Shown here in pieces: positions 16,289 through 55,666 of a stretch of 64,000 nucleotides of DNA. The notes beneath the pieces were generated by a model. The model saw only the letters and a program-made list of their open reading frames with translations, did not search any database and was not told where the DNA came from. This DNA comes from an uncultured Actinomycetota bacterium (lineage in GTDB: Bacteria > Actinomycetota > Actinomycetes > CAWDCV01), in contig CAWDCV010000002.1 in the NCBI GenBank assembly GCA_963801015.1, positions 1,060,118-1,124,117 on the forward strand. Direction: 5' to 3'. Both the position numbers and the translations under genes were made by a program. The first letter of the stretch is position 1, and each line of letters starts with the position of its first letter.

Positions 16289-16449
16289 CTAGAACGGGTC
16301 GAGGTAGGTGCAGGTCGGCCTGTCGGCGACCGGCGGGCGCGGCGCGGCGCTGTCCTGGGCGTACGCCGAGCTATCACACGCGACGAGGGTGAGGGCGCTG
16401 AGACGCCTGCTCCGGCGAACATGGCAACGCGCAGACGAACGGAACGCAT
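16289..16449 (-). CDS. small secreted lipoprotein (about 52 aa), apparent +1 indel in a C/G run near 16394
   Basis: ATG 16449: MRSVRLRVAMFAGAGVS in one frame, then LTLVACDSSAYAQDSAAPRPPVADRPTCTYLDPF* in the neighbouring frame. Joined they form a classic signal peptide plus lipobox (LVAC). Either frame alone is non-protein-like. Confidence 0.45.
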
Positions 16450-16602
16450 GATGGTGCTCCAACCGGGAGGTTCGAGAGATTCGGAGCAGATGTCCCCGAG
16501 GTACGGCGCCGCGCCGGGGTCGCAGCGCCGTACCCGCGACCACCTCCACGCACAACACGGCCCGCCGGTTCGCGCGGCAGCGGAATCGGGTACACAGACC
16601 GG

Positions 16603-17448
16603 ATGGACACCTCTCGGTCCGCGCGGATGCGGTACCGGATCTGGGAAGTGGCCATCGGCGAGACCTGCATGGCACTCGCGGTCCTGCTCACGGCGTTCGT
16701 CATCGCGAAGGTGTCGCCAATCGACGCGCTGGACGTGCGCTGGGCGACGTGGCTCGCCGACCATCGCAGCGAGCTGATCGAGGACGCCTCGGTGTGGCTC
16801 GGCCTGCTCGGTGGTGGCGGCGTGATGTGGCCGGTGATCGGCGTGATCGTCGTCGGCCTGGCCTACACCCGTCGATCGGAATCACTCGTCGTCTTCGGGC
16901 TGACCGTCTCGACGGCGCAGCTGTTCATCGGACCGCTCAAAGCGATCGTGGCGCGCGCGCGGCCAGACGACGCGCTGATGGTGACCAGCGGGCTGTCGTT
17001 CCCGTCCGGCCACACCGTGACCGCCGCCGCCTTCTCCTTCGGACTCGTCGTGGCGATGACGCCACTCACGCGGACCCGCGTGGTCTGGTACGCCCTCGCG
17101 CTCGTCTGGACGGTGTGCATGGGCCTGAGCCGTACCGTCGTCGGCGCGCACTGGCTGTCCGACACGATCGGCGGCGCGCTGTACGGCATCGGCTTGGCGT
17201 GCCTGTGGTCCGGTGTCGTCGGCCTGATCGTGCTGCGCCGGTACCCCTCCGTGCAGCCGCCGGCGACGCGACTGCCCGCGCTGGACCAGCCGGAGGCTCC
17301 CGAAACGTCGCTGGAGGATGTGCTCGCTCACGGCAGCTCCGCCGACGGGTCGGGGCGCTCACTCCCCGAACGGTTGGGGGGCGCGTCCACGAGTGCGGAG
17401 GCTCCGGGATTTGAACCCGGGAGGGGCGATAAACCCCAACCGCATTAG
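16603..17448 (+). CDS. PAP2 superfamily phosphatase (phosphatidic acid phosphatase type 2 / undecaprenyl-PP phosphatase-like)
   Basis: Membrane protein with the PAP2 motifs KxxxxxxRP (KAIVARARP), PSGH and SRxxxxxHxxxD (SRTVVGAHWLSD). Its 3' 50 nt overlap antisense with tRNA-Ser. Confidence 0.8.
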   Translation: MDTSRSARMRYRIWEVAIGETCMALAVLLTAFVIAKVSPIDALDVRWATWLADHRSELIEDASVWLGLLGGGGVMWPVIGVIVVGLAYTRRSESLVVFGLTVSTAQLFIGPLKAIVARARPDDALMVTSGLSFPSGHTVTAAAFSFGLVVAMTPLTRTRVVWYALALVWTVCMGLSRTVVGAHWLSDTIGGALYGIGLACLWSGVVGLIVLRRYPSVQPPATRLPALDQPEAPETSLEDVLAHGSSADGSGRSLPERLGGASTSAEAPGFEPGRGDKPQPH

Positions 17449-17485
17449 CAGTGCGGCGCCATAGACCGGACTAGGCGAAGCCTCC
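17396..17485 (-). tRNA. tRNA-Ser (anticodon GCT)
   Basis: Reverse complement GGAGGCTTCGCCTAGTCCGGTCTATGGCGCCGCACTGCTAATGCGGTTGGGGTTTATCGCCCCTCCCGGGTTCAAATCCCGGAGCCTCCG: 7-bp acceptor, anticodon loop CTGCTAA, long variable arm typical of Ser, GGTTCAAATCC T-loop; CCA not encoded. Confidence 0.85.
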
Positions 17486-17554
17486 TGGCGGCCATCGGCC
17501 GCGTCGAGTCAGAGTACCGGTTCATGCAGGACGCATCGACGGAAGGAGTCAGTA

Positions 17555-18178
17555 GTGGGGGTGACCGCCCGGCCGGTGACGGCGGCACGGTGGGACGACT
17601 TCGCCGCGTTCGCAGGGCCGAGTGGGCTCTACTCGGGGTGCTGGTGCACGTACTTCCGCAGAAAGGGCGCGGAGTTCGACGCCGGCTGCCGCAACAAAGG
17701 TGTGGGCAATCGCGAGTTCCTGGCGCGGCTGACCGAGGAGGGCCGGGTGCCCGGCCTGCTGGCGTACGGCGATGAGGGCGACCCCATCGGTTGGGTGTCG
17801 GTAGGTCCGCGCTCGGACTTCGGTCGCGTCCTGCGCTCCCCGATCCTCAAGCCGGCTGCCGAGGAATCGGCCGAGCCGAACGTCTGGTCGGTGGTCTGCT
17901 TCTACATCGCCCGGTCCGCTCGGCGCTCGGGTGTCGCGACGGCACTGCTCGATGCCGCGATGATGCACGCGATCCACCACGGCGCGCACGTGATCGAGGG
18001 CTACCCGGTTGACACAGGTGGCCGGCGACGCCCCTCAGCCGAGCTCTACACCGGCACCCTCGACCTGTTCACTCGAGCCGGCTTCACCGAGGCGTTCCGC
18101 AGATCTCCCCATCGGCCGGTGGTCCGTTTCGAGGTCACGTCCGCAGAAAGTCGCGCAAAGCAGCGTCGCCGTCCTTGA
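17555..18178 (+). CDS. GNAT family N-acetyltransferase
   Basis: GGAAGGAG RBS then GTG 17555; protein with acetyl-CoA binding region (VVCFYIARSARRSGVATALLDAAMMHA). Confidence 0.7.
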   Translation: MGVTARPVTAARWDDFAAFAGPSGLYSGCWCTYFRRKGAEFDAGCRNKGVGNREFLARLTEEGRVPGLLAYGDEGDPIGWVSVGPRSDFGRVLRSPILKPAAEESAEPNVWSVVCFYIARSARRSGVATALLDAAMMHAIHHGAHVIEGYPVDTGGRRRPSAELYTGTLDLFTRAGFTEAFRRSPHRPVVRFEVTSAESRAKQRRRP

Positions 18179-19671
18179 ATGTCTTCGTGAGCCCGTCCCC
18201 CGACAACGACGTCGACACGCGTGCGCGCCGGCCTCGTCGGCGCCGCCGGGGTCGCACGGTGGGCGAAGCGCTGCTGCTGACTGCGGCGGGAGTGTTGCTG
18301 CCCGGTGCGCCGCACCGCGCGGCGGGTCGGCGGCGGCTCGGACTGCTCATCAACATCAGTGTTGCCGTCGTCGTCGTTGTCGCGATCCTGTGGGTCGTCA
18401 CCCGCTCCAGGCAGGATTTCCTCCAGCTCGCCGTCGACCCGGACGCGCTCGCCATCTTGCTGGTCGTCGCCGGGCTGCTGGCATTCGTGTGGCCAGCGTC
18501 TGTGGTCGCCGGGTGGCTCGCGGTACGCCCACGGCAGCTCTCCGGGGCGTCGCGACTAGCGGCGTATGCGACCGTGGCCGTGCTGTGCCTCGCGATCGCC
18601 GCCCCGCTCGCGGTTGCCACGCGGTACGCCTACGTCCAGCGCGATCTCGTCCTCACCGTGTTCGACGACGACGCGGGCGCGCTGGCCAGCGGAGACAAGG
18701 TCCAGCCGGAGGAAGTCGACCCGTGGGCGGGCACGCCGCGGGTCAATGTCCTGCTGCTCGGCGGCGACGCCGGCCCCGATCGTCGCGGGTTGCGCACCGA
18801 CACCGTGATCCTCGCCAGCATCGACACCGCCACTGGCAACGCGGTGCTGTTCAGCTTGCCGCGCAACCTCGAGCGGGCGCCGTTCCCACCGGGAAGCGAG
18901 CTGGCCCAGAAATACCCGCGCGGTTTCCCGGACTTCCTCAACGCGATCTACCCGACCGTCAGCGATAGCCCGAACCTGCTGGCCGGCGTCCCGGACAAGG
19001 GGATCCGCGCGGTCAAGGACGCAGTCGGCGAGATCCTGGGGCTGCCGGTCGACTACTACATGATGGTCGACCTCGAAGGCTTCCGCGAGGTCGTCGACGC
19101 GCTCGGCGGGATCACCGTGAACGTCAAGGAGCGAGTGTCGTACGGCGCGATCAAGGCCAGCGGCGCCATCGGTCGGTCGCAGGGATTCATCGAACCGGGG
19201 CTACAGCAGATGGACGGCGAGACGGCACTGCTGTACGCCCGGTCGCGCGACTTCGCCACCGACTACGACCGCATGGCCCGCCAGCGCTGCGTGGTGAACG
19301 CCATCGTCGACACGGCTGATCCGGTCACCGTGTTCCGCAGCTACCCGCAGATCGCCGGGACGCTGCGCGAGCACCTCCAGACCGACATCCCGGCGGCGCT
19401 GCTTCCCGCGTTCGTCGACCTCGGCGACCGGATCAAGGCTGGTACGCAGACGAGCGTGGCGTTCGTGCCCCCGCTGATCACGTCGGCCAATCCGGACTTC
19501 GCGCTGATCCGGCAGACCGTCACGCAGGCACTTATTCCGGTACCGCCGGAGGTTCCGGCTGCCGAGGAGAGCACGCCCACCCCGGCGATCCCGAGCGAAC
19601 CGGCCGAGACCGTCACACCGACGCCGGAAGCGATAACGGGGCAGCCGGCGAACCTCGATACCGTCTGCTAG
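18175..19671 (+). CDS. LCP family protein (LytR-CpsA-Psr cell-wall glycopolymer transferase)
   Basis: N-terminal TM anchor, LCP catalytic domain (VNVLLLGGDAG...RTDTVILASID, LPRNL, GGITVNVKERV) and a Pro/Thr-rich C-terminal tail; ATGA overlap with the upstream GNAT gene. Confidence 0.85.
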   Translation: MNVFVSPSPDNDVDTRARRPRRRRRGRTVGEALLLTAAGVLLPGAPHRAAGRRRLGLLINISVAVVVVVAILWVVTRSRQDFLQLAVDPDALAILLVVAGLLAFVWPASVVAGWLAVRPRQLSGASRLAAYATVAVLCLAIAAPLAVATRYAYVQRDLVLTVFDDDAGALASGDKVQPEEVDPWAGTPRVNVLLLGGDAGPDRRGLRTDTVILASIDTATGNAVLFSLPRNLERAPFPPGSELAQKYPRGFPDFLNAIYPTVSDSPNLLAGVPDKGIRAVKDAVGEILGLPVDYYMMVDLEGFREVVDALGGITVNVKERVSYGAIKASGAIGRSQGFIEPGLQQMDGETALLYARSRDFATDYDRMARQRCVVNAIVDTADPVTVFRSYPQIAGTLREHLQTDIPAALLPAFVDLGDRIKAGTQTSVAFVPPLITSANPDFALIRQTVTQALIPVPPEVPAAEESTPTPAIPSEPAETVTPTPEAITGQPANLDTVC

Positions 19672-19946
19672 GAGCCCACCCGAACGGGCCCGCGCCGACG
19701 TCTGTTCGGGGGACCGATGTCTGGTCGTGAGGCCGCTGCATTCCGCGGCCCCATCGGTTACGAATGTGGGACGGTGCCGGAGTCGGTGAGGGGTTGCGCA
19801 GGCGTGTGCTTTGATGGCAAGGCGCATGCTCCGGTCCGTCGGCGTGGCCGCGCCACTCCGATGACGCCGCCTCCCCTCCCGGGCGACGCCGGTGCACTCC
19901 GGGGAACCACACCGGAGCTACGTGCTGTACGCAGGGAGGATGCTCG

Positions 19947-22939
19947 GTGAGCGGCAACCGGTCAGAGCGGCGGTCGTTGAGCGACCTGCTGGCTGAGCGG
20001 CACGGCAGCGAGCCAGCGGGTAGCGCCGAGGCTTTCCAGGCTCCTCCTCCGGACGAGGAGACCGCCGCTGAGGAGACGGCGCCAGGCAACCGTGCAACGC
20101 CCGTCGGCCGCCCCGGATCCATGGCCGCGCGGCTGGCCGCGACCCGGAAAGCCCAGCAGGAACGTCGCAGGCAGCGTCCGCCACGCGGCGAAACAGACAC
20201 AGCGGACGCGTCCACCGCGCCGACCGATGAGCCGGCGGCGCACGGTGTCAACGGGGTGACACAGGAGGCGCCCGCCGCTCCCGAATCGGCCACTCCCGAA
20301 TCAGCCAAATCAGCCGCTCCCGAATCAGCCGCTCCCGACGAGGAAGCGCCGGTACGCCCTCGACCCGGCTCGGCGGCGGCCCGACTGGCCGCCGCGCGGC
20401 GCGCCCGCCAAGCTCGCCGGGAGGCCGCTCGCGAGCAGCGCGAGGCGACCGCAACGCCGGTGGCGCCGGCTGCGCCGGCTGCGCCGCCGCCGAGCCAGCC
20501 AAACCCCCCAAGCCAGCCGAGCCAGCCAAATCCCCCAAGCCAGCCGAGCCAGCGGCGGAGGCATCGCCGAAGCCAGCTGCGTCGCCCGAGCGGGCTGCGC
20601 CACCCGAGCCTGGCCGCCGACAAGCCCGGAGCTCGACATCGCCGACGCCCGTCCCGCCCGAGCGGGCTGCGCCACCCGAGCCTGCCGCCGACAAGCCCGT
20701 GAGCTCGACATCGCCGACGCCCGTCCCGCCCAAGCCCGCTGCGGCGACACCGCCCGCTGCACCCAAGCCCACTGCACCCAAGCCCACTGCACCCAAGCCA
20801 GCGGCGCCCAAGCCCGCTGCGGCGAAGCCCGCCGCGCCGAAGCCGAAGCCACCGGACGCACCTCAGCCCGCCGATGCACCGCCGGCAGCGCGCCCGACCC
20901 CAGAACCCGCGCCGCCGAAGACTGCTGCGCCGAAACCGAAGCCGGCAGTGTCCGCAACGCCACAACCCGCGCCGGCACCGCCACCACCGGCAGTCACGCC
21001 GGAGCCCATCGCCGCCCGGACGGCACAACCACCGCCCGCGTCCGCTCCAGCTGGTCCCGCTGTTGACTTGCCGAACTTTGGCGTCGTCGCGACGGTCATC
21101 GCGTTGATCGCTGCAGCCATCCTGCCCCTCCTCGCTCTCGGCGCCGCGTCGAGCGCAACGATTGCCGAAGGTGGCTACGTCGTCCGCGCCTTCGCCGCTT
21201 CCGAGATCCCCGGCGCGCTCGCGTCGACGTCCGTGGCAGATCGCCTGCTCGGTGCCTATGCCAGCGCCACCGGCGCCTTCACCGGTGACGGCAGCCCGGT
21301 GCTCGCTGGCCGCGTCCCCATGCTCCTCGCGGCAGCGGTCGGTGTCGGACTCGTCTACCTGCTCGGCCGCCACCTGACCCACTCGCGCGTCACCGCGGTC
21401 GTAGCGGCGGTCCTGTTCGGGCTATCGCCGCTGTCGATCACGCTGCACCGCATGGTCGATCCGGCGAATCTCGCCATCCCGTGCATGCTCGCGGCGATCC
21501 TGCTCGCCGCGTCCGCGACGAAGCCCAGCGTCACGCGACGGGGACGTTTCCTCGTGGTCGGCCTTGCTGCCGTCCTCGCGCTGCTCGCGCTGCTCATTGC
21601 TCCCATGCTGCTCGTTGTCGTGCCCACGGTGAGCTGGTTCGCCTGGGAGGCGCTGCGACCGACGATCCGCGATCGCGTCGTCGATGCCGTCGCGCCCGCC
21701 GTGATGGCCGTCGCGTGGCTCGTGACCTACCTCTTGGTCCGTTCCGGCGTCGGATCGACTGGACTCGGCAGCGGCGCCGAGAGCATCTCGCTGGACGTCC
21801 TGATCGGGCCCGACCCGGTGTTCGTCGTGCTTTCGATCCTCACTGCGTCGGGTGCGCTGTTGCTCGGACGGCTGCGCGTCGTCTCGGCGACGCTGCTCGT
21901 GCTCGTGCTGCTCTGCTTCTTCCCTGGGTCAGCCTCGCGCGTCAGTGCCGCGATCGCGGCCGTCCCGTTCGCTGCCCTGGTCATCCCGAGCGCGGTCGAA
22001 GCCGCCTGGCTGCACTGGCGCGAGGTCACCTCCGAGGAGTCCGCGCGGCTGCGTCGACTCGGTCCAGCCATCGTCGTCGGCCTGCTCGTCGTTCTCGCGC
22101 TGCCGATCTGGCTGGTCCGCCTGGGTCCCGAGGTCGCCTCCCGATCCGACGGCGATCCGGCCCGCGCTGTCGCTGATTTCCTCGACAGCGAGGTCTCCGA
22201 CGACGAGGCCGTCCTCGTTGACGACGCGACCTGGGTCGTCCTCGCCCGCGCCAGCGACGACCTGGCCGCGCGGATGCCGTACGACGCCGTGCGCTCCGGT
22301 GGCGCATTCGTACGATCGGGTCTCGATCCGTCCCTCGCGGTGGCCGCCGAAGGCGTCCGTGACGAGCGGTTGCGCGATTTCCTCGACCGCTCGCGCCCGC
22401 TGGCCGCATTCGGCCCGCTGGTCATCCGCCAGGTGACCCAGTCGGCCACGCAGAACCGCCCGTCCAGCCAACCCACGCCGAGCGAGACACCGCTGCTGTC
22501 ACCCGAACAGGAGCGAGCAGATCCGCTGCCTGCCGAGGAGCTCGCCGAACGGCGTGCGGCCGGTGCCGACCTGCTCCGCAACAGCAAGCTCATCGCCGAG
22601 CCACCAGCGGTCGCTGCGCTCGAACAGGGTCAGGTCGATCCCCGGTTGCTGTCGGTGCTGGTCTCCGCGATCTTCAGCCAGACGATCCGGGTCGCCGACT
22701 TCCCGGCCGCTCGTGGCGAGGAGGGCACCGACGCCGCGCGGCGCACCGCGATCATCACCCAGATCGACGGAGCGCCGGTCGATGCGAACGGGGAGGCCAC
22801 CGAGAAGCTCGTGCGCTTCCTCCAGGCACAGCTGCCGACGTACCGCCCGGCTGACGTGTCCGTCTCGTTGACCGGTTCCAGCTTGACCATCCGCTATGAC
22901 GCCCCGAGCCCCGTAGGACTCCTCGCGAGGGGGACCTGA
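19947..22939 (+). CDS. large Pro/Ala-rich repeat protein with C-terminal polytopic membrane domain (GT-C/PMT_2-like glycosyltransferase fold suspected); apparent frameshift near 20481-20492
   Basis: Frame 0 (19947..) encodes the N-terminus with internal repeats (GSMAARLAATRKAQQERRRQ / GSAAARLAAARRARQARREA). From ~20490 the adjacent frame encodes natural PAxxPK repeats (AEPAKPPKPAEPAKSPKPAEP...PKPTAPKPTAPKPAAPKPAAAKPAAPKPKPP) and runs without a stop into the 746-aa ORF 20699..22939 (>10 TM helices plus a soluble C-terminal domain). Frame 0 itself becomes an Arg-rich nonsense tail. Confidence 0.6.
20460..20830 (+). repeat. in-frame coding tandem repeats (30-bp SQP/PKPAEP unit x2-3; ~75-bp unit x2 at ~20583-20735; 15-bp aagcccactgcaccc unit x3)
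   Basis: Direct repeats visible in sequence. The two ~75-bp copies differ by a +1 and a -1 indel that compensate each other (PEPGRRQARSSTSP versus PEPAADKPVSSTSP). Confidence 0.7.
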
Positions 22940-22968
22940 TGCTCACCAGAAAGAGAAGGGGAGGAATA

Positions 22969-23874
22969 GTGAAATCTCGTATGCGCGCCATGGCATCGGC
23001 AGGAGCCGCCGCCGTCGCGCTTCTCGCGGCCTCATGGGCAGGTGCTGCCCCGGCGGTCGCTCAAACGGACTCGGTCGTCCCGACGTCCACCGGCTGGGTG
23101 CGGCTTGCCCACCTGTCCCCGGACACGCCGAACGTCGACGTCTACCTCACCTCGTTCGACCGACCCGATTTCCGCGAGGTGTTTCCCGGCGTCGGCTACG
23201 GCGTCGTCTCCGACTACCAGCGACTCGAGCCGGGCCGCTACAACGTCGAGATGCGGCCGGCAGGTGCCGCCGAGAGCACGCCGCCGGTGATCTCCGCAGC
23301 CGCGGACGTCCAGGGCGGCCTCGCGTACACCGTGGCGGGTCTCGGCCAAAATGCGCAGCTGCAGCTCAAGGTGCTGTCGGACGACCTGTCGCTGCCGCCC
23401 TCGGGGCAGGCCAAGGTGCGAATCGTCAACGCCTCGCTCAACGCGCCGCTCGTCGACGTGTCGGTGCAGAACGGGCCGACCGTAGCGACGGGCGTGGCGT
23501 TCGCCAACTCGTCGCAGTACGGCTCCGTCCCGGCCGGTTCGTGGACGCTGTCGGTCACGCCCAAGGAGGGGGCGACGACACCCTCCACCGGCAACGTCGA
23601 CCTCGCCGCGGGCAGCGTGTACTCGGTGCTGCTCCTGGACGAGGCGGATGGAACCGTCGAGGTCGTCACCCACACCGACGCATCGGCGGCTGGAGCCGCA
23701 GCGGCTGGCGGCGTCGCCACCGGGCTCGGTGGTACGGCCGGAGGCAGCTCCTCGCTGCCGCTAACCGTGTTGGCGATCGGCGCCGGTGTGCTACTCGCCG
23801 GTGCGCTCGGGCTGCGCCGCATGCTCGTCCCGGCTCGTGGCCGCTACGTCGCGTCCCACCGGATGCCCGGCTGA
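22969..23874 (+). CDS. DUF4397 domain-containing secreted/surface protein with C-terminal membrane anchor
   Basis: AGGGGAGGAA RBS then GTG 22969. Signal peptide MRAMASAGAAAVALLAASWAGAAPAVA, then DUF4397 repeats (VRLAHLSPDTPNVDVYL..., KVRIVNASLNAPLVDVSV...). The C-terminus reads GGTAGGSSSLPLTVLAIGAGVLLAGALGLRRM... Confidence 0.75.
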   Translation: MKSRMRAMASAGAAAVALLAASWAGAAPAVAQTDSVVPTSTGWVRLAHLSPDTPNVDVYLTSFDRPDFREVFPGVGYGVVSDYQRLEPGRYNVEMRPAGAAESTPPVISAAADVQGGLAYTVAGLGQNAQLQLKVLSDDLSLPPSGQAKVRIVNASLNAPLVDVSVQNGPTVATGVAFANSSQYGSVPAGSWTLSVTPKEGATTPSTGNVDLAAGSVYSVLLLDEADGTVEVVTHTDASAAGAAAAGGVATGLGGTAGGSSSLPLTVLAIGAGVLLAGALGLRRMLVPARGRYVASHRMPG

Positions 23875-24461
23875 ATCGCTCCATCCAGCTGCTCGCCGCC
23901 GCGGTGCTCCTTGCCGCGGCGGCGGGCTGTGGGACGCGCTCCGACTCCGGGACCGCGTCCGCGCCTCGGCAGGAATCGCCGCCCCCAACGATCTCGTCGA
24001 CAATGATCCCGGTGCTGCGGTCAGCAGCGCCGGTCTCGCTGACGATCCCCAAGCTCGACCTGGCCGTCGACCTCGAGCGCCTAGGCCTCGACGATGCCGG
24101 GGCGCTCATTCCGCCGCAGGACTTCGCTCGACCCGGCTGGTACGTCGACAGCGCGGTCCCCGGTGACGTCGGCCCCGCTGTGATCGCCGGCCACGTCGAC
24201 TCGCGCAACGGGCCCGCCGTCTTCTACGACTTGCGCGAGCTAGCGCCAGGAGACGTCGTCGACGTCGGCCGTGAGGACGGCAGCACGGCCCGCTTCAGCG
24301 TCCTCGGCACCGAGCAGTACCCCAAGGACGAGTTCCCGACCCAGGCGGTCTACGGCCCCACGCCGGATGCGGAACTGCGCCTCATCACCTGCGGCGGCGT
24401 GTTCGACCGGGCGGCGCGCTCGTATCGCGACAACGTCGTCGTCTACGCGGTCGCCGCCTGA
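23871..24461 (+). CDS. class F sortase (transpeptidase); start codon unresolved
   Basis: Catalytic domain motifs: TIPKLDLAVDLERLG...GWYVDSAVPGDVGPAVIAGHVD...LRLITCGGVFD...NVVVYAV. The in-frame N-terminus LNRSIQLLAAAVLLAAAAGCG has no ATG/GTG; an ATG at 23863 (MPG) is one base out of frame, a possible homopolymer indel. Confidence 0.75.
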   Translation: MNRSIQLLAAAVLLAAAAGCGTRSDSGTASAPRQESPPPTISSTMIPVLRSAAPVSLTIPKLDLAVDLERLGLDDAGALIPPQDFARPGWYVDSAVPGDVGPAVIAGHVDSRNGPAVFYDLRELAPGDVVDVGREDGSTARFSVLGTEQYPKDEFPTQAVYGPTPDAELRLITCGGVFDRAARSYRDNVVVYAVAA

Positions 24462-24492
24462 CCTGCGCTGCGGACAATGGCGCGAGGGCCGG

Positions 24493-25722
24493 CTACCAGG
24501 TCGGACGCAGCGGCATTCCCGACGTGCCGTCGTCGGAGGTTCGCACGCCGAGCACCTGATGCAGCTCGATCTGGTCGCGATCGAACCCCAGCCGGGACGC
24601 CGCCATGTACAGACGCCACACCCGCGCTCGTCCCTCGCCGACCTCCCGCACCGACTCGTCCCAGTGCTCGTCGAGGTTGGCCACCCAGGCGCGAACCGTG
24701 CGCGCGTAATGCTCCCTGAGGTTCTCCTCGTGCCGCACCTCGAGCCCGCTGTCCTGCATCGCCGACACCAGCGTGCCGACGCCTTCGAGCTCGCCGTCGG
24801 GGAAGACGTACCGACTGATGAACTTGCCTGCCTGGGCGGGCGCCGTCGTCGTCGGACGGGTGATGCAGTGATTGAGCAGCCGACCCTCGGGACGCAGCTT
24901 CGCCCGCAGGAAACTGAAGTACGCGGCCAGCTGGCCCTTGCCGACGTGCTCCGTCAAACCGATCGACGACACGGCGTCGTACGACATGCCGGGAGCGTCG
25001 CGGTAGTCGAGGAAGCGCACATCCGCCCGATCGGACAGGCCTCGCTCGGCGATCGCCTTCTGCGCCCACTCCGCCTGCCGCCGGGACAGCGTGACACCGA
25101 GAGCCTGGACGCCGTAGTGCTCGGCAGCATGCATCACCATGCCGCCCCAGCCACAGCCGACGTCGAGTAGACGCTCGCCCTCCTTCAGGTCGAGCTTTCG
25201 CGCCACGAGATCGAACTTCTCGTGCTGCGCCTCCTCGAGCGTGGCGTCCGGACGCGGATACACAGCGCACGTGTACGCCATCGACGGCCCGAGGAACATC
25301 TCGTAGAAGCGGTTGGATACGTCGTAGTGGTGCGCGATCGCCTCCGCGTCGCGCCGACGCGAATGACGCTGTCCGCGCAGCTTCACCTCTTCGCGCGGTC
25401 GCGGCACGGGGCGCAGTAGTCCGGGGCCGAAATCGCGCACGAGCTGGGCTCGCTCGCGGATCGAGAGACGTCCCAATCGCGGATCGCTGAGCGCGCGCAA
25501 TGCGTCGTAGAGGTCACCGTGCACGTCCAGTTGGCCGGTGACGTACGCCCGTGCGAGTCCGAGCTCGCCGGGCGACGTGGCGATGTATCTGACAGCCAGC
25601 GGCGTACGAATGTCGATACACACTGGAGCATCGGACGGGCCCGTGGCGCTCCCGTCATAGGCCTCGAAGCGGACGGGGACGTCCGACTCCATCACCCGCG
25701 TGAACACGTCGGAGAGCTTCAT
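24493..25722 (-). CDS. bfaB: cyclopropane-fatty-acyl-phospholipid synthase family SAM-dependent methyltransferase (10-methylene-stearate forming, BfaB-like)
   Basis: GGAGG RBS 9 nt before ATG 25722; MKLSDVFTRVMESDVPVRFEAYDGS..., LDVGCGWGGM SAM motif, CFA-synthase C-terminal region; 5 nt downstream of the FAD oxidoreductase gene on the same strand. Confidence 0.8.
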   Translation of the reverse strand: MKLSDVFTRVMESDVPVRFEAYDGSATGPSDAPVCIDIRTPLAVRYIATSPGELGLARAYVTGQLDVHGDLYDALRALSDPRLGRLSIRERAQLVRDFGPGLLRPVPRPREEVKLRGQRHSRRRDAEAIAHHYDVSNRFYEMFLGPSMAYTCAVYPRPDATLEEAQHEKFDLVARKLDLKEGERLLDVGCGWGGMVMHAAEHYGVQALGVTLSRRQAEWAQKAIAERGLSDRADVRFLDYRDAPGMSYDAVSSIGLTEHVGKGQLAAYFSFLRAKLRPEGRLLNHCITRPTTTAPAQAGKFISRYVFPDGELEGVGTLVSAMQDSGLEVRHEENLREHYARTVRAWVANLDEHWDESVREVGEGRARVWRLYMAASRLGFDRDQIELHQVLGVRTSDDGTSGMPLRPTW

Positions 25723-25727
25723 GGCAG

Positions 25728-27104
25728 TCACCTCCTGCGTACGCACTTCTCGTACAGATCGAGTAGTCGACCGTCGGGATCGTAGGTCTTCTTCAGCAGG
25801 TCGTAGGCCGAGCCACCGTAGAGCTCCCAGAAGTGATCCTCCTCGTAGAAAGCCGTGCTGTAGAGCGATTTCCGGCCGCCGAGCTCCTCCACCTTCTCCT
25901 CGATGCGTCGGTTGTAGGTGCCCTCCGCCTCGTCCGGCTGCAACGGTACGGAGGACCAGAAGCCGAAGTTGACGTACAGCTTCGACGGGTCGAGAGAGTA
26001 GAGGTCCCAGGTGACATCGGCGCTGCGCTGCCGTAACGGACACGCCCACACCGGCGAGATGCCGATCTCGTTGACGAAGAACTCGTGGAACTCGGCTGCC
26101 TTCTCGATCGGCACCTCGATGTCCTGCACGACCGTCTCGCGCGCTGGACGGCCGCGCAGCCGGTCGTACCGGGCCGAAAGCTGGTAGCGCCGATCCCACC
26201 CGACGATGCGCCAGTAGGTATCGGATCGCAGCCGATCCTTGGGCCACAGCCGGCGCAGCCACGGTTGCTGCGCGCCGAACGCCCGCGAGCACCAGAACCA
26301 GTCGGTGTCCCATCGCCACAGGTAGTCGTGGGTGGTGAGCACATCGTGCGTTCGGCGCTGGATCGACCGGTAGTAAACGTCCATCCCCGTGTAGTCGCTG
26401 ACAGCATCAGCAGTCGACACAAAGCGCCCGATCGTCAAGTAGAGCTCGCCGCGGCTGAACAGCGTGGCGTCGACGAAGTCGCCCGAGGGTTCGGCGCACG
26501 CCTCGTCCATGGCGGCGAAGAGGTCGGTCGCTGTGCTGAATCGGCGGTGCTGCAGCTCGACGTACGGCTGCACGGGCTCGAGCTCGATGGTGAGCCGCAG
26601 CGCGTAGCCGAGCGTCCCGTAGGAGTTGGGGAAGCCGTAGTACAGCGCGCGGTGCTCATGCGTCTTCGCCCCTCCAGGAGCGGAGTCAGGGGTGGCGACG
26701 ATCACGCGTCCATCGCCGGTCATCACCTCGAGCTCGAGGACGGACTCGTGCGGCAAGCCGTTGCGGAACGACGATGATTCGATGCCGAGGCCGGTGACCG
26801 CGCCGCCGAGGGTGATGGTGCGAAGCTGTGGGACGACGCGCGGCATGAGTCCGTACGGCAACGTGGCGGCGACGAGGTCCTCGTACGTTGTCATGCCCTG
26901 CACGTCAGCGGTTCGACGCTCCGGATCGACGGACAGCACACCGCTGAAGTCGTGGACCCGCAGACCAGGGGCAGTGGTGGCGGCACGAGTTCGGAACAGG
27001 TTCGACGTCTGCTTCGCCAGCCGGACCGGAGCGTCTGCCGGGAGGGCGGCGTAGTCCGCCTGCACTCTGGACCGTCGTTCCTCGTACGCGTCGTACGCCC
27101 CCAT
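25728..27104 (-). CDS. bfaA: FAD-binding oxidoreductase (BfaA-like partner of the Cfa-family methyltransferase; tuberculostearic acid pathway)
   Basis: 458-aa PCMH-type FAD-binding domain protein (TLGGAVTGLGIESSSFRNG) immediately upstream of the cfa-like gene on the same strand; this gene pairing is the one described for 10-methyl branched fatty acid synthesis in mycobacteria. Confidence 0.7.
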   Translation of the reverse strand: MGAYDAYEERRSRVQADYAALPADAPVRLAKQTSNLFRTRAATTAPGLRVHDFSGVLSVDPERRTADVQGMTTYEDLVAATLPYGLMPRVVPQLRTITLGGAVTGLGIESSSFRNGLPHESVLELEVMTGDGRVIVATPDSAPGGAKTHEHRALYYGFPNSYGTLGYALRLTIELEPVQPYVELQHRRFSTATDLFAAMDEACAEPSGDFVDATLFSRGELYLTIGRFVSTADAVSDYTGMDVYYRSIQRRTHDVLTTHDYLWRWDTDWFWCSRAFGAQQPWLRRLWPKDRLRSDTYWRIVGWDRRYQLSARYDRLRGRPARETVVQDIEVPIEKAAEFHEFFVNEIGISPVWACPLRQRSADVTWDLYSLDPSKLYVNFGFWSSVPLQPDEAEGTYNRRIEEKVEELGGRKSLYSTAFYEEDHFWELYGGSAYDLLKKTYDPDGRLLDLYEKCVRRR

Positions 27105-40001: not shown

Positions 40002-40375
40002 TTACTGGGCGGTGTAGCCGCCGTCGACGGGGAGGGCGACGCCGATGACGAAGCCGGCCCCCGGACTGCTCAGCCACAGCACCGAGGCCGCGATCTCCTC
40101 AGACGTGCCGAGCCGGTTGATGGGCTGGTTCGCCTTGGCGACCTCAAGGTCAAGTTCGCCTTTGTCGATCATGTCAGTGACCATCGGGGTGGCGATGGTG
40201 CCGGGACAGATAGCGTTGATCAGGATTCCGCGGGGGGCGTACTCGAGGGCCGCGCTGCGGGTGAGGCCGATGACGCCGTGCGGGCGGCGGCCAGACCCAT
40301 GCCGGAGCTGGCGCCGGTCACCAGCGCGACCTGGCCGGAGAAGTCATACGTCGGGTTCATCATCGAGCCTCTCAG
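40002..40375 (-). pseudogene. SDR family oxidoreductase remnant with internal deletion (~120 codons missing, frame broken)
   Basis: N-terminus MMNPTYDFSGQVALVTGASSGMGLAAAR (Rossmann TGxxxGxG) is joined directly, in a different frame, to the C-terminal ...HGVIGLTRSAALEYAPRGILINAICPGTIATPMVTDMIDKG...GRLGTSEEIAASVLWLSSPGAGFVIGVALPVDGGYTAQ*. The catalytic middle region is absent. Confidence 0.75.
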
Positions 40376-41403
40376 CTGGGTGCGGGTGAGGGTTGGAGGA
40401 GGACCTTGATGGCCTGACGCTGGTCCATGGCGGTGTAGGCGTCGGCGGCCTGGTCCAGCGGCAGGGTGAGGTCGAAGACCCGGCCGGGGTTGATCGTGCG
40501 GTTCCAGATCCGGTCGATCAGGTCGGGTAGGAACCGGCGGATTGGGGCGGGGCCGCCGTGGACGTGGACGTGGGTCATGAAGATGTCGTCGCCGGCGATG
40601 GCGACGTCATGGAGGACGCCGACGAAGCCGAGGTGCCCGCCGGGGCGGGTGGCGCCGATGGCCTGCATCATCGACTCCTGCGTTCCGACGGCCTCGACGA
40701 CCGAGTGTGCGCCGAGTCCGTCGGTGAGCTCCTTGACCTTGGCGATCCCGGCTTCGCCGCGTTCCTCGACGATGTCGGTGGCGCCGAACTCCCGCGCGAG
40801 GGCCTGCCGGTCGGCGTGCCGGGACATGGCGATGATGCGCTCGGCGCCGAGCTCCTTGGCGGCCAGGACGGCGAGCAGCCCGACGGCCCCGTCACCGACC
40901 ACGGCGACGGTCTTGCCCGGTCCGGCCTCGGCCGCCACGGCCCCGAACCAGCCGGTGCCCAGCACATCGGAGGCGGCCAGCAGGCTGGGAATCAGGTCCG
41001 CATCCGGCTGGCCCGGGGTGGCGACGAGCGTGCCGTCGGCCAACGGCACCCGCATCAGCTGCGCCTGCGACGGACCCGGGAAGTCGCGGTGGACGCAGTT
41101 GGTCTGATAGCCGGCCTGGCAGATCTCGCAGGTGTTGTCGGAGGCGAAGAACGACCCGACCACGAAGTCGCCGACCTTGACCTGCTCGACCTGGTCGCCG
41201 ACCTGCTCGACGACACCGACGTACTCATGCCCCATCGGTTTCGGCTCGTTGACGGCGTCGGCGCCGCGGTAGGGCCACAGGTCCGATCCGCAGACACACG
41301 CCGCGGCGAGCCGGATGATCGCATCCGTCGGCTGCTGGATCGTCGGCTCGGGCAGGTCCTCGACCCGGACATCACCGGGGGCATGCATCACAACACCACG
41401 CAT
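40372..41403 (-). CDS. zinc-dependent alcohol dehydrogenase family protein (MDR superfamily; formaldehyde/threonine dehydrogenase-like)
   Basis: GHEYVGVV zinc site, structural-zinc Cys cluster (CEICQAGYQTNC), VVGDGAVG NAD-binding motif. Confidence 0.8.
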   Translation of the reverse strand: MRGVVMHAPGDVRVEDLPEPTIQQPTDAIIRLAAACVCGSDLWPYRGADAVNEPKPMGHEYVGVVEQVGDQVEQVKVGDFVVGSFFASDNTCEICQAGYQTNCVHRDFPGPSQAQLMRVPLADGTLVATPGQPDADLIPSLLAASDVLGTGWFGAVAAEAGPGKTVAVVGDGAVGLLAVLAAKELGAERIIAMSRHADRQALAREFGATDIVEERGEAGIAKVKELTDGLGAHSVVEAVGTQESMMQAIGATRPGGHLGFVGVLHDVAIAGDDIFMTHVHVHGGPAPIRRFLPDLIDRIWNRTINPGRVFDLTLPLDQAADAYTAMDQRQAIKVLLQPSPAPS

Positions 41404-49883: not shown

Positions 49884-50393
49884 GTGCTGTTCGATCGCGA
49901 TGGCACGCTCGTTCACGACGTCCCCTACAACGGGGATCCGGAGCAGGTGCAGCCGGTACGCGGGGCAGCCGAGGCGCTGCGCCGCTTGCGGGAGCGCGGG
50001 ATCGCCACCGGTATCGTCAGCAACCAGTCCGGAATCGCCCGCGGGCTGCTGACCGTCGACGACGTCGAGGCCGTTACGGAGCGCGTCGAGCAGCTGCTGG
50101 GCCCGTTCGACACTCGCCAGTACTGCCCCCACGGCGCCGACGATGGGTGCGGGTGCCGCAAGCCCGCGCCCGGCATGATCATCGATGCCGCTGCAGATGT
50201 CGGCGTGCCGCCGAGTGAGTGCGCCGTCATCGGCGACATCGGCAGCGACGTTTCGGCGGCTCTTGCCGCCGGCGCCCGAGCCATCCTCGTCCCCACGCCC
50301 GTCACCCGCCGGGACGAGGTCGCGGCCGCGCCTGAGGTAGCCAGCGACCTGGGTGAGGCGGTCGACCTCCTACTGCTCAGCGCGTGCCGATGA
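49884..50393 (+). CDS. gmhB: D-glycero-beta-D-manno-heptose-1,7-bisphosphate 7-phosphatase (HAD-IIIA)
   Basis: LFDRDGTLV (HAD motif I), GIVSNQSG, the zinc-binding CxHxxxxxCxC cluster (CPHGADDGCGC) and IGD motifs; the start is ambiguous (GTG 49884; an out-of-frame ATG at 49854 sits within G-runs). Confidence 0.8.
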   Translation: MLFDRDGTLVHDVPYNGDPEQVQPVRGAAEALRRLRERGIATGIVSNQSGIARGLLTVDDVEAVTERVEQLLGPFDTRQYCPHGADDGCGCRKPAPGMIIDAAADVGVPPSECAVIGDIGSDVSAALAAGARAILVPTPVTRRDEVAAAPEVASDLGEAVDLLLLSACR

Positions 50394-51412
50394 GACGCGT
50401 CCTGGCCGTTCGTCTCGACAGCGACGGTGACGTCCTGCTCGCCGGCCCGGCGATCCGCGCCCTGGCGGCGGCCGGCAGCGTCACGCTGCTGTGCAGCCCG
50501 CGCGGCCGGCAAGCCGCCGAGCTCCTTCCCGGCGTCGACGGCGTCGTGGTGTGGCGCTGCCCGTGGATCGAGGCACAGCCGGACCCCGTCGACCGGGCTG
50601 CCATCGACGCGCTCGTCACTCGGCTCCGGGTAGCCGACCTGGACGAGGCGGTCGTCTTCACCTCGTTCCACCAGTCGGCGCTGCCTACAGCCCTCCTGCT
50701 CCGGCTCGCTGGGGTACGGCGAATCAGCGCGATCAGCGAGGACTATCCCGGAGCGCTGCTCGACGTCCGTCACCGCATCGACGACAGCACCCCGGCATCG
50801 GACGTTCCAGAGTCCGAGCGCGCGCTCTCCCTCGCCGCGGCGGCCGGCTTCCCGCTGCCCACGCAGGATGACCGGCGGTTGGCCGTACGACGACCGTTAC
50901 CGGCGACGACGTCGCTGACGGGCGCTGAGCCGTACGTCGTCCTTCACCCGGGCGCATCCGTCCCGGCGCGCGCCTGGCCCGCGCATCGTGCCGCCGAGAC
51001 AGTCGTCGCTCTCGCCGAGCGCGGCGTGCGCGTCGTCGTCACCGGAAGCCGGGACGAGAAGGAACTGACCGCCGGCGTGGCGGGCGTCGACGCCGTCGAC
51101 CTCGGCGGCCGGACGACGTTCGCTGAGTTGGCGGGCGTGCTCGCCGGCGCCGAGGCCGTGATCGTTTCGAACACCGGCCCGGCCCACCTGGCCGCCGCGG
51201 TCGGCACTCCGGTCGTGTCCCTGTTCGCGCCGACCGTCCCCGCGGCGCGCTGGGCACCGTACGGCGTTCCCGCTGTCGTGCTTGGCGACCATGCCGCGCC
51301 CTGCCGCGGCAGCCGCGCGACGACGTGCCCGGTGCCCGGTCACCCGTGCCTGTCGTCCGTCACGGCGGCCGACGTCCTGGCCGCTCTCGATCGATTGCGT
51401 GCGGGCCCATGA
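50390..51412 (+). CDS. glycosyltransferase family 9 (ADP-heptose-dependent heptosyltransferase, WaaC/WaaF-like)
   Basis: MRRVLAVRLDSDGDVLLAGPAIRAL... and a C-terminal GT-B half with VSNTGPAHLAAAVGTPVVSLFAPT; overlaps the gmhB stop. Confidence 0.8.
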   Translation: MRRVLAVRLDSDGDVLLAGPAIRALAAAGSVTLLCSPRGRQAAELLPGVDGVVVWRCPWIEAQPDPVDRAAIDALVTRLRVADLDEAVVFTSFHQSALPTALLLRLAGVRRISAISEDYPGALLDVRHRIDDSTPASDVPESERALSLAAAAGFPLPTQDDRRLAVRRPLPATTSLTGAEPYVVLHPGASVPARAWPAHRAAETVVALAERGVRVVVTGSRDEKELTAGVAGVDAVDLGGRTTFAELAGVLAGAEAVIVSNTGPAHLAAAVGTPVVSLFAPTVPAARWAPYGVPAVVLGDHAAPCRGSRATTCPVPGHPCLSSVTAADVLAALDRLRAGP

Positions 51413-52371
51413 GGGTCCTGCTCTGGCACGTGCACGGCTCGTGGACGACATCGTTCGTCCAAGGCCCGCACACCTACCTCGTCCCGGTGACCGCCGACCG
51501 CGGGCCGGACGGGCTCGGCCGGGCCCGGACGTACGACTGGCCGGCCTCCGTGGTCGAGGTCACGGCCGCCCAGTTGCGACAGGAGGACGTCGACGTCGTC
51601 GTCCTGCAACGTCCGCACGAGGCCGGACTCGCTGAGGGTTGGCTCGGCCGGCGGCCCGGACGCGACGTGCCGGCGGTCTACGTCGAGCACAACACGCCCA
51701 AGGGCGAGATCCTCGCGGCGCGGCATCCGGTCGCCGACCGCGATGACCTCACTCTCGTCCACGTCACCCACTTCAACCGGCTGTTCTGGGACAACGGGCG
51801 CGCACCGACCACCGTCATCGAACACGGCGTCGTCGACCCGGGCGCTCGCTACACCGGCGAGCTTCCCCGGGCTGCAGTCGCCATCAACGAGCCGATCCGC
51901 CGCTGGCGCGTCACCGGTACTGACCTGTTGCCCGCGTTCGCCGCCGCCGCGCCGGTCGACGTTTTCGGGATGCGAACTGCAGACCTCGCGGAGACACTTC
52001 AGCTCGGGCCGGACCGGCTCGCGACCTACGACCTGCCGCAGGAGGAACTGCACGACCAGATGGCGCAGCGCCGGGTCTACATCCACCCCATCCGGTGGAC
52101 CTCGCTCGGCCTGTCGCTGCTCGAGGCGATGCACCTCGCCATGCCCGTCGTGGTGCTTGCCAGCACGGAAGCGGTCGAGGCGGTCCCGCCTGACGCCGGC
52201 GTGATCTCGACGCGCCTTGATGTGCTTACCGCGGCCGTCCGCGCCTACGTCGCTGACCCAGACCACGCCAGGGAGATGGGGCAGCAGGCGCGGCGCGCGG
52301 TCCTCGCCCGGTACTCCCTTCAGCGATTCCTGGACGACTGGGAACTGCTGCTCAAGGAGGTGACTCGATGA
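51409..52371 (+). CDS. glycosyltransferase (GT-B fold, GT4/GT1-like)
   Basis: MRVLLWHVHGSWTTSF...LGLSLLEAMHLAMPVVVLAST; ATGA overlap with the GT9 stop. Confidence 0.7.
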   Translation: MRVLLWHVHGSWTTSFVQGPHTYLVPVTADRGPDGLGRARTYDWPASVVEVTAAQLRQEDVDVVVLQRPHEAGLAEGWLGRRPGRDVPAVYVEHNTPKGEILAARHPVADRDDLTLVHVTHFNRLFWDNGRAPTTVIEHGVVDPGARYTGELPRAAVAINEPIRRWRVTGTDLLPAFAAAAPVDVFGMRTADLAETLQLGPDRLATYDLPQEELHDQMAQRRVYIHPIRWTSLGLSLLEAMHLAMPVVVLASTEAVEAVPPDAGVISTRLDVLTAAVRAYVADPDHAREMGQQARRAVLARYSLQRFLDDWELLLKEVTR

Positions 52372-53606
52372 AGATCGCGATGGTCTCCGAACATGCCAGC
52401 CCGCTGGCGACCCTGGGGGGCGTCGACGCGGGCGGGCAGAACGTGCACGTGAGCGAGCTGGCGCAAGCACTCGCCCGCAGGGGCCATGCGGTGACGGTCT
52501 ATACCCGTGACGAGGGAACGTTCCCCGATCGGCGCATCCTCATGGCGCCGGGTGTCACGATCGAGCACGTGCCCGCCGGGCCGCGCGCCGTCCTCTCCAA
52601 GGACGAATTGCTGCCTCATATCGGCGATTTCGGCCGCTACCTCGCCGCCGCCTTCGACCGCGAGCGCCCCGACATCGTGCACGGCCACTTCTGGATGTCG
52701 GGGCTCGCCTGCTTGATGGCGACCAAGGACACGTCGGTGCCGGTCGTGCAGACCTTTCACGCGCTCGGCGTCGTCAAGCGTCGCCACCAGGGCGTTCGCG
52801 ACACCAGTCCGGAACATCGGCTGCGCCTCGAGCAGGGCGTCGCCCGTGGGGTCGATCGAGTCATTGCGACCGCCTCCGACGAGGTGTTCGAGCTGATGCG
52901 GATGGGGGTAAGGCGGCCGGAAATCAGCGTGGTGCCCTGCGGGGTCGACGTCGACCACTTCCAGCCTGACGGCCCGACCCTGCCGCGAGGCGAGCTGCAC
53001 CGCCTCGTGATCGTGGGTCGCCTCGTCCAGCGCAAGGGCGTCGACGACGTGATCCGCGCCCTCGCGCTCGTACCGCGGACTGAGCTGCTGATCGCAGGCG
53101 GTCCCGACGTGGCCGAGCTAGGCGATGACTCCGAGGTACGGCGGCTCATCCTGCTCGCGGCGAAGATGCGCGTGCTTGATCGGGTGAGGTTGCTCGGCCG
53201 CGTCTCGCGGTCCGAGCTCCCGGCGCTGCTGAGGTCCGCCGACATCGTCGTCTGCATGCCCTGGTACGAGCCGTTCGGCATGGTGCCGCTGGAAGCCATG
53301 GCGTGCGGGCGTCCCGTCGTGGCGTCGGCCGTCGGCGGCATCGTCGACACCGTCGTCGACGGCGCGACCGGAACGCTGGTCCGGCCGCAACGCCCGGACA
53401 TGCTCGCCCACGCGCTGCGGCGGCTGCTCGCCGATCCGGTGCGGCGCGCGGGGTACGGCCTCGCCGGGCGAGAACGCGCGGCCATGCGCTACCGCTGGGA
53501 CCGCATCGGCGCCGAGACCGAGTCGGTGTACGCGTCCGTACTGGGACTCGATGCTGACATGGCATCCGCACCGGACGCTGACGAGATGATCGAGGTGGCC
53601 CGATGA
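52368..53606 (+). CDS. glycosyltransferase family 4 (MshA/PimA-like retaining GT)
   Basis: MKIAMVSEHASPLATLGGVDAGGQNVHVSELAQALARRGHAVTVYT..., EPFGMVPLEAMACGRPVVAS; ATGA overlap. Confidence 0.8.
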   Translation: MKIAMVSEHASPLATLGGVDAGGQNVHVSELAQALARRGHAVTVYTRDEGTFPDRRILMAPGVTIEHVPAGPRAVLSKDELLPHIGDFGRYLAAAFDRERPDIVHGHFWMSGLACLMATKDTSVPVVQTFHALGVVKRRHQGVRDTSPEHRLRLEQGVARGVDRVIATASDEVFELMRMGVRRPEISVVPCGVDVDHFQPDGPTLPRGELHRLVIVGRLVQRKGVDDVIRALALVPRTELLIAGGPDVAELGDDSEVRRLILLAAKMRVLDRVRLLGRVSRSELPALLRSADIVVCMPWYEPFGMVPLEAMACGRPVVASAVGGIVDTVVDGATGTLVRPQRPDMLAHALRRLLADPVRRAGYGLAGRERAAMRYRWDRIGAETESVYASVLGLDADMASAPDADEMIEVAR

Positions 53607-54241
53607 CCGCGGTCGGAGGGATGGCCCGAACCCCGTTGCCGCTCGGCGCCGCCCACGTGACGGCGCTCTCGGATGCGCTGCTCCGGTTCGGCGATTGCGT
53701 GGACACCGCGCAGCGCTGGGGTGAGCAGCTCGCCCAGATGCTGGCGGGTGGCGCCCGGTTGCTGGCCGTCGGCAATGGTGGCAGTGCCGCTCAGGCCCAG
53801 CACCTGACCGCGGAGCTCGTCGGTCGCTATCGCGACGACCGGCCGCCGTTCTCGGCCATCGCGCTCCACGCGGAGACGTCGAGCTTCACCGCCATCGCCA
53901 ACGACTACGGCATGCAGGAGGTGTTCGCCCGGCAGGTGCTCGCGCACGGTCGCCGCGGCGATGTCCTGGTCGCGCTCTCAACGAGTGGCACCTCGCCCAA
54001 CGTGGTCGCCGCCGTTCGCGCCGCGCGCGACCTCGACATCACGACCTGGGCGATGACGGGACCCGTGCCGAACCCACTGGCCGGGCTCGCCGACGACGCG
54101 CTCAGCGTGGATGCCGCGGCGACCGCGACGGTGCAGGAGCTGCACCTGGTCGCCGTCCATCTCGTCTGCGCGGCGTTCGACTGGGCACTGGCGTGCTCCG
54201 ATGGCGACTACCAGACCAACGGGAAGGGGGTCGTCGCGTGA
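53603..54241 (+). CDS. gmhA: D-sedoheptulose-7-phosphate isomerase (SIS domain)
   Basis: SIS motifs (LLAVGNGGSAAQAQHLTAEL, DVLVALSTSGTSPNVV); ATGA overlap upstream and GTGA overlap downstream. Confidence 0.85.
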   Translation: MTAVGGMARTPLPLGAAHVTALSDALLRFGDCVDTAQRWGEQLAQMLAGGARLLAVGNGGSAAQAQHLTAELVGRYRDDRPPFSAIALHAETSSFTAIANDYGMQEVFARQVLAHGRRGDVLVALSTSGTSPNVVAAVRAARDLDITTWAMTGPVPNPLAGLADDALSVDAAATATVQELHLVAVHLVCAAFDWALACSDGDYQTNGKGVVA

Positions 54242-55602: not shown

Positions 55603-55666
55603 CTCTGCATCCCGCCTACCTCCATCGACTGCGCTCCAGCTGTGTGCTCGCGACGGAGGTCGGCTC

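Follow-up and report, generated by a model that had tools for sequence, protein, structure and literature searches.

Repeat-unit variation and frame breaks in the Pro/Ala/Lys-rich linker of a PMT_2-like membrane protein gene from an uncultured Actinomycetota bacterium

We analyzed a 64,000-nucleotide (nt) stretch of DNA from an uncultured Actinomycetota bacterium (assembly GCA_963801015.1, contig CAWDCV010000002.1, positions 1,060,118 to 1,124,117), here called the window, with positions counted from its first letter. The region from 19947 to 22939 on the plus strand is best explained as a single long gene, whose product has a cytoplasmic, lineage-specific N-terminal domain, a Pro-, Ala-, and Lys-rich linker of ~190 amino acids (aa), and a PMT_2-like membrane domain of 623 aa. 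Comparison with related loci showed that the linker is a coding minisatellite whose copy number truly varies among related strains. The reading frame is broken in the linker by 1-nt insertions and deletions (indels). Judging from the sequences compared, these indels are probably (at roughly 60%) consensus errors of a Nanopore-type long-read metagenome assembly at a strain-variable, GC-rich repeat, and the real gene would be intact and in a single frame.

Repeat arrays and length of the linker

Using Tandem Repeats Finder (TRF), we found four in-frame tandem arrays between positions 20455 and 20844, with units of 9, 27, 72, and 15 bp, all of them multiples of 3. The 9-bp array (CGCCGGCTG; 3.6 copies; 20455 to 20486) encodes APA units and is 15 nt longer than in L008, the locus of the closest relative. 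It is followed by 2.4 copies of the 27-bp unit (20489 to 20553; TRF score, 123; 97% matches), which reads AEPAK(P/S)PKP in the frame that continues into the membrane domain (the downstream frame), and by 2.2 copies of the 72-bp unit (20583 to 20743; score, 285). The last array consists of 6.2 copies of the 15-bp unit (20752 to 20844; score, 109), encodes (xAPKP)n, and has identical copies 2 and 3. A further in-frame repeat of 15/24 bp, encoding (PESAx)n, was detected by TRF upstream of these arrays, inside the N-terminal domain (20274 to 20338); here the window is 9 bp longer than L001, L004, and L008. All these arrays are read on the plus strand. In the whole window, whose G+C content is 69%, only one tandem array with a score of at least 60 lies outside positions 20274 to 20844, and this region is the single tandem-repeat hotspot of the window. 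Its longest homopolymer is a run of six C residues (C6; 20504 to 20509).

The related loci all come from uncultured Actinomycetota, and one protein fragment was named Acidothermales. L008 (ERZ25039547 contig_7801, a 1.59-Mb contig) is ~98% identical to the window in the flanks. L001 and L004, the latter from the metagenome-assembled genome (MAG) MFD02360.bin.1.34, show 96 to 97% amino-acid identity, and L002, from the Joint Genome Institute (JGI), shows 79%. The contig of L010 is named k133_ in MEGAHIT style and hence is from a short-read assembly. A scan of a genome collection yielded just one related MAG.

The linker breaks the BLAST alignments of every close relative. We therefore give its length as measured between fixed conserved anchors: it is 599 bp in the window, 462 bp in L001 and L004, 460 bp in L008, 451 bp in L005, 508 bp in L006, and 510 bp in L007. 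The linkers of the window and L008 differ by blocks of 15, 9, 24, 72, and 15 nt and by one 4-nt indel; in L008, the 27-bp and 72-bp units are each present once and the 15-bp unit is present in 3.9 copies. Each orthologue has its own 15-bp array, for example, 3.5 copies in L001 and 4.2 copies of a PPTAK unit in L002. Replication slippage or unequal recombination adds and removes the 9-, 15-, 27-, and 72-bp units. Linker length and sequence vary even among strains that are 92 to 98% identical in the flanks, because the spacer is weakly constrained. Its ratio of non-synonymous to synonymous substitution rates (dN/dS), calculated against L008 for the portion after the GTG at 20699, was 0.73.

A preceding reading of the window, made from its sequence only, had described hypervariable in-frame tandem repeats in a Pro/Ala linker and had expected the linker length to differ between strains. 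The TRF arrays confirmed the repeats, and the range of 451 to 599 bp, with repeat-unit blocks distinguishing the window from L008, bears out the expectation. The unit sizes needed revision: the units given as 30 bp and ~75 bp are 27 bp and 72 bp long, and the 15-bp unit, counted three times, is present in 6.2 copies. Furthermore, the sequence-only reading had treated slipped-strand or assembly instability as one signature. Slippage suits the units that are multiples of 3, but not the 1-nt indels outside homopolymers; the two are distinct causes.

The host gene and its reading frame

The ORF finder divided the locus into two open reading frames (ORFs), one of 251 aa (19947 to 20702) and one of 746 aa (20699 to 22939), which overlap at the tetranucleotide GTGA. 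The conceptual gene, from the GTG at 19947 to the stop at 22939, has 2,993 nt (2 modulo 3) and is one base short of an open frame. Three-frame translation revealed a plausible protein in two pieces. In the first, codon starts are divisible by 3; it extends to ~20486, ending ...REAAREQREATATPVAPAAPAAP. The second is read one base back (remainder 2) and runs from ~20489 (AEPAKPPKPAEPAKSPKPAEP...) through the linker and the hydrophobic membrane domain to 22939. A frame plot of G+C at third codon positions did not separate the frames in the Pro/Ala-rich stretch. An ORF on the minus strand (19613 to 21382) was treated as a GC-rich artefact.

The N-terminal domain (19947 to 20486, plus strand) starts at the GTG at 19947 and carries SGNRSERRSLSDLLAERHGSEP and two Arg-rich motifs, PGSxAARLAAxR. 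It is in frame with the rest of the protein in L001, L004, L002, and L010. The domain also bears MSGNRSERRSLSDLLAERHGSEP, and its Arg-rich motif can be written in longer form as two copies of PGSxAARLAAxRxAxQxRR. This N-terminal part appears to be real coding sequence, because its dN/dS against L001 was 0.26 (32.5 synonymous and 24.5 non-synonymous changes). Against L008 the value was 0.38, from just 9 synonymous and 9 non-synonymous changes. No relatives of the domain beyond the clade were found among 1.84 billion representative proteins.

The linker (20489 to 21067, plus strand) is encoded in the downstream frame and consists of 35% Pro, 26% Ala, and 9% Lys. It is followed by the membrane domain (21068 to 22939, plus strand), the only part of the gene that is publicly annotated. 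Its 623-aa product has an exact match, P0007, on a 1.85-Mb NCBI/ENA contig, which is a MAG contig. The domain shows weak similarity to PMT/PMT_2, families of GT-C-type glycosyltransferases: the window protein matched PMT of Pfam with 16.8 bits, below the cutoff of 22.7, and its orthologue P0004 matched PMT_2 at an E value of 2e-08. There was no NCBIfam or PDB sequence match for the membrane protein. Its dN/dS against L008 was 0.10 (37 synonymous and 10 non-synonymous changes), a value that indicates strong purifying selection.

In L001, L004, L002, and L010, one uninterrupted frame encodes the sequence VSGNRSERRSLSDLLAERHGSEP..., then the linker, and then ...DLPNFGVV and the membrane domain. 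Since these four clean orthologous loci are single-frame and the N-terminal part appears to be real coding sequence, the ancestral and usual state is most plausibly one gene of about 950 to 1,000 codons. The N-terminal domain and the linker together form an extension of ~370 aa upstream of the membrane domain, which is unique to the clade.

All public gene calls for the family begin at an internal TTG or GTG (618 to 669 aa), including those for loci with an intact long frame. These calls leave unannotated 1.1 to 1.3 kb of conserved, open N-terminal extension, which appears to be under purifying selection. The extension corresponds to positions 19947 to 21067 of the window, 3025 to 4000 of L001, 5025 to 6000 of L004, and about 1999 to 3000 of L010.

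The public contigs of L005, L006, and L007 contain a 1-nt indel every 100 to 300 bp over the whole loci, and these three loci were rejected as frame evidence. Their predicted proteins, P0002, P0005, P0006, and P0019, are multi-frame chimeras; one example is an LCP protein fused to an out-of-frame N-terminal sequence.

Several searches were directed at further copies of the gene. The 746-aa and 251-aa ORF products had no exact match in the protein collection. In protein word-index searches, which low-complexity words dominated, there were only 6 matches for the merged protein, one partial match for the first 59 aa, and none for the 174-aa N-terminus. The only short-read contig with the exact DUF4397 protein encoded next to the gene in the window, a Logan contig of run SRR29483051, is 2.8 kb long and does not include the linker. 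In the JGI metagenome scans and the exact look-ups, no short-read or isolate copy of the linker of the window/L008 clade was found.

Frame breaks and their possible causes

Three-frame translation placed the 5' frame changeover within 20466 to 20492, and homology narrowed it to ~20480 to 20488, inside the 9-bp array. The window reads GCGCCGCCGCCGAG at 20478 to 20491. DNA alignments showed that one base is missing at 20480 to 20488 (plus strand) from GCGCCGCC^GCCGAG, compared with CCACCAGCCGAG of the in-frame relatives; written in codons, the relatives have CCA CCA GCC GAG and the window has CCG CC- GCC GAG. Downstream of this break, codon starts leave the remainder 2. Around the same site, all indels between L008 and the window are multiples of 3, and therefore L008 carries the same -1. 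Additionally, L008 lacks AGCT (window positions 20576 to 20579), a 4-nt deletion that leaves it with two uncompensated shifts.

Two further indels distinguish the copies of the 72-bp unit. Copy 2 (20655 to 20726, plus strand) is in frame (PERAAPPEPAADKPVSSTSPTPVP) and is the homologue of the single unit of L008. Copy 1 (20583 to 20654, plus strand) differs from it by 0 substitutions and 2 indels, an extra G (GG at 20612 to 20613) and a T missing between 20628 and 20629. The 16 nt between the indel sites (20613 to 20628) are an out-of-frame patch: in the downstream frame, copy 1 reads PEP-GRRQAR-SSTSP and copy 2 reads PEP-AADKPV-SSTSP. A 44-base pattern covering both copies matched twice in the window, versus 0 matches expected from 100 shuffles. 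In total, the window thus has three 1-nt indels in ~150 bp (-1 at ~20480 to 20488, +G at 20612/20613, and -T at 20628^20629), with a net change of -1. The compensated patch was absent from all relatives compared. L001 and L004 seemed to differ by a compensated patch, but this proved to be a substitution cluster and not an indel pair. When JGI metagenomes were scanned for the exact 72-bp unit with both indel states allowed, there were 0 matches, and a protein-pattern scan of the same metagenomes gave 0 confirmed loci.

These alignments and translations agree with earlier observations on the window, namely, that the 72-bp copies differ by +1 and -1 about 20 nt apart with a local patch between them, and that the 5' frame switch falls in the same repeat block. 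That the frame arrangement of the whole gene is abnormal was borne out by the four single-frame orthologues. The comparison of frames among orthologues, which the sequence-only reading had put forward as a check, gave a divided answer: the 5' break is also present in the nearest relative, but the compensated patch occurs in none of the relatives.

Several lines of evidence favor consensus error as the cause of the 1-nt indels. Every frame anomaly sits in the sole tandem-repeat hotspot of the window. In the ~13 kb of flanks outside the linker, there was no coding frameshift relative to L008, L001, or L004; isolated 1-nt indels in these flanks are intergenic, and clustered ones sum to multiples of 3. 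No other split gene was found in the window; the remaining overlapping ORF pairs are separate complete genes. Moreover, natural mutation is unlikely to leave a very recent 72-bp duplication with 2 indels and 0 substitutions. At the first indel site, copy 2 has CCTGCC, the unit of L008 has CCGGCC, and copy 1 has CCTGGCC, the union of both; at the second, the respective sequences are CCCGTG, CCCATG, and CCCG-G. Both indel sites of copy 1 thus coincide exactly with positions at which copy 2 departs from the unit of L008, a coincidence whose chance we roughly estimate at about 0.04. A consensus over co-occurring, mixed strains would yield the union alleles of copy 1. The long-read MAGs of Microflora Danica (MFD) are Nanopore-only, were assembled with Flye, and were polished by one round of Medaka (PMC12313526). 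The relatives are MAGs with Flye-style "contig_N" names, one of them an MFD MAG, and we infer that the window also derives from Nanopore data. Finally, both flanking domains appear to be functional coding sequence, because dN/dS is 0.10 in the membrane domain and 0.26 in the N-terminal domain versus 0.73 in the linker, and this fits an intact gene.

Some observations weigh against consensus error. The 5' break is common to L008, which is an independent assembly from another sample with equally clean flanks, and random error would not recur at one site. No indel site lies in a long homopolymer, and the second break of L008 comprises 4 nt; neither is typical of Nanopore error. In addition, copies 1 and 2 have identical context, so a context-dependent basecalling error should strike both. 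The secondary frame disturbances (+G and -T in the window, -4 in L008) all lie upstream of a conserved GTG/ATG, which is exactly the position that a real split of the gene would predict.

Such a split is a tenable, though clearly less probable, explanation. The -1 at ~20480 to 20488 would then be a real, heritable frameshift, inherited from the common ancestor of the window and L008, that divided a fused gene in two; the hypervariable linker would have been the fragile site of an early gene fission, and both halves would be kept by selection. The 251-aa ORF (19947 to 20702) would comprise the N-terminal domain and an out-of-frame, Arg-rich tail. The 746-aa ORF (20699 to 22939) would comprise the rest of the linker and the membrane domain, and it would be translated by termination-reinitiation at a GTG (ATG in L008) overlapping the stop of the first ORF. 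The stretch between the break and this start, freed of frame constraint, would gather indels. Consistent with this, the window and L008 differ near the break solely by indels that are multiples of 3 and share the same -1, both assemblies are free of frameshifts in the ~13-kb flanks, and the later frame-disturbing events are all upstream of the conserved start. The GTGA at 20699 to 20702 (plus strand) combines the first available start of the downstream frame with the overlapping TGA stop of the N-terminal frame and so yields two complete ORFs; L008 has ATGA here, and the window, L008, and L005 all have a start codon (GTG or ATG) at this point of the linker. Since the divergence of the window and L008, purifying selection on the membrane domain has stayed strong (dN/dS, 0.10), and therefore the domain must be expressed. 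However, all four clean orthologues outside the window/L008 pair are fused in a single frame. Direct reading of the sequence revealed no Shine-Dalgarno-like sequence before the GTG at 20699. The N-terminal frame of L008 passes the ATGA and runs to position 5999, so the coupling geometry is not conserved, and the TGA arises automatically from the codons GTG AGC. A new 72-bp copy is unlikely to have gained two real 1-nt indels without any substitution, and the two assemblies that support a split belong to one and the same type of long-read MAG.

It is very unlikely that recoding joins the two frames, either by a programmed -1 frameshift on C_CCC_CCA (20504 to 20510, plus strand) or by slippage on C6 that would make fusion or separation of the N-terminal domain phase variable. 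The sequence is formally a -1 slippery heptamer; it is correctly phased with the N-terminal frame and would send ribosomes into the downstream frame, and C6 is also present in L008. Yet the predicted minimum free energy of the downstream RNA was -31.4 kcal/mol versus a mean of -34.0 kcal/mol for shuffled sequences (z = +0.89), and 160 of 200 shuffles folded at least as well. The length of C6 does not vary among the window, L008, L001, L006, and L007; orthologues with this run are single-frame, and the two-frame arrangement is not conserved. Furthermore, L008 would require a second shift, and homology places the divergence of the frames upstream of the C run. C6 is also shorter than typical phase-variable tracts. 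Least probable of all is a decaying pseudogene in the window lineage. The net -1 of the window and the two uncompensated shifts of L008 would suit decay, but over 1.87 kb the membrane domain has neither stop nor frameshift in both genomes and retains a dN/dS of 0.10, the N-terminal domain retains values of 0.26 to 0.38, and all disruptions lie within ~250 bp of the linker.

With consensus error as the preferred explanation, the locus marks a conserved gene that is probably broken by the consensus of a long-read MAG. A real break would instead represent a small, clean gene fission inside the repeat linker of a cell-envelope enzyme of uncultured soil Actinomycetota. Neither outcome alters general understanding. 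Every public gene call for the family misses the conserved N-terminal extension of ~370 aa, and the gene start can be corrected.

Known systems and other features of the window

As an in-frame coding tandem repeat within a proline-rich spacer, the linker is of an ordinary kind. Like the minisatellites or variable-number tandem repeats (VNTR) in proline-rich linkers and wall-associated proteins of bacteria, it has head-to-tail copies, units that are multiples of 3, very high copy identity, and a strain-variable copy number. In contrast to the bacterial VNTR proteins, the array lies in the predicted cytoplasmic extension of a membrane enzyme and not in a surface-exposed antigen, and the variation seen here is between strains. 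In composition and periodicity (AEPAKPPKPAEP, KPKPP, and xAPKP units; 35% Pro), the linker is also like the (Glu-Pro)n-(Lys-Pro)n spacer of TonB. Because of this composition, it may be an extended, rigid, TonB-like connector that links the N-terminal module to the functional domain. Unlike the spacer of TonB, which is periplasmic, the linker in the window precedes the first membrane helix; the analogy is a functional one, and no homology is claimed.

The frame breaks resemble the consensus indel errors of Nanopore-only MAGs (Flye and Medaka; PMC12313526, PMC9262707) in that a conserved ORF on long "contig_N" contigs is disrupted by 1-nt indels and in that related low-coverage assemblies (L005 to L007) carry such errors throughout. 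They differ in lying outside long homopolymers and between clean flanks, and one of them is also present in a second assembly. Two other classes were considered and rejected. A phase-variable contingency locus was dismissed on three grounds: there is no tract with a unit that is not a multiple of 3, C6 is invariant, and the break maps upstream of C6. The programmed -1 frameshift class was dismissed because the formally present heptamer has no stimulatory structure and the arrangement is not conserved.

The host protein is similar to PMT_2/GT-C membrane glycosyltransferases in having many membrane helices and a weak PMT match, and its gene adjoins those for an LCP ligase and a sortase. It is unlike them in scoring below the Pfam threshold and in carrying the clade-specific extension of ~370 aa. 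Nothing in the linker or in the host gene is categorically new.

The gene is part of a cell-envelope cluster, in which the genes are arranged as PAP2, GNAT, LCP, long gene, DUF4397, sortase. The PAP2, GNAT, and LCP ligase genes are upstream and the DUF4397 and sortase genes are downstream, and this order is kept in all related loci. In the compared segment of the window (16400 to 27100), the conserved order goes on past the sortase gene to opposite-strand genes for a cyclopropane-fatty-acyl-type methyltransferase and a FAD-binding oxidase. A cluster of small insertions, in sum ~+26 nt relative to L001 and L004, is located near a gene boundary at 26658 to 26689 and is absent in the comparison with L008.

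Elsewhere in the window, an ORF on the minus strand (40002 to 40343) matches only positions 148 to 236 of the 236-position profile of short-chain dehydrogenases (SDR). It stands directly after a complete 343-aa ORF (40372 to 41403), which we take, from reading its sequence, to encode a zinc-type alcohol dehydrogenase. The smaller ORF was rejected as a split gene; it looks like a truncated SDR remnant and not like the product of a frameshift. Finally, a run of genes for glycosyltransferases of the GT9, GT1, and GT4 families, a short-chain dehydrogenase, and another GT9 protein (50357 to 57303) suggests a second envelope-glycan cluster in the window.

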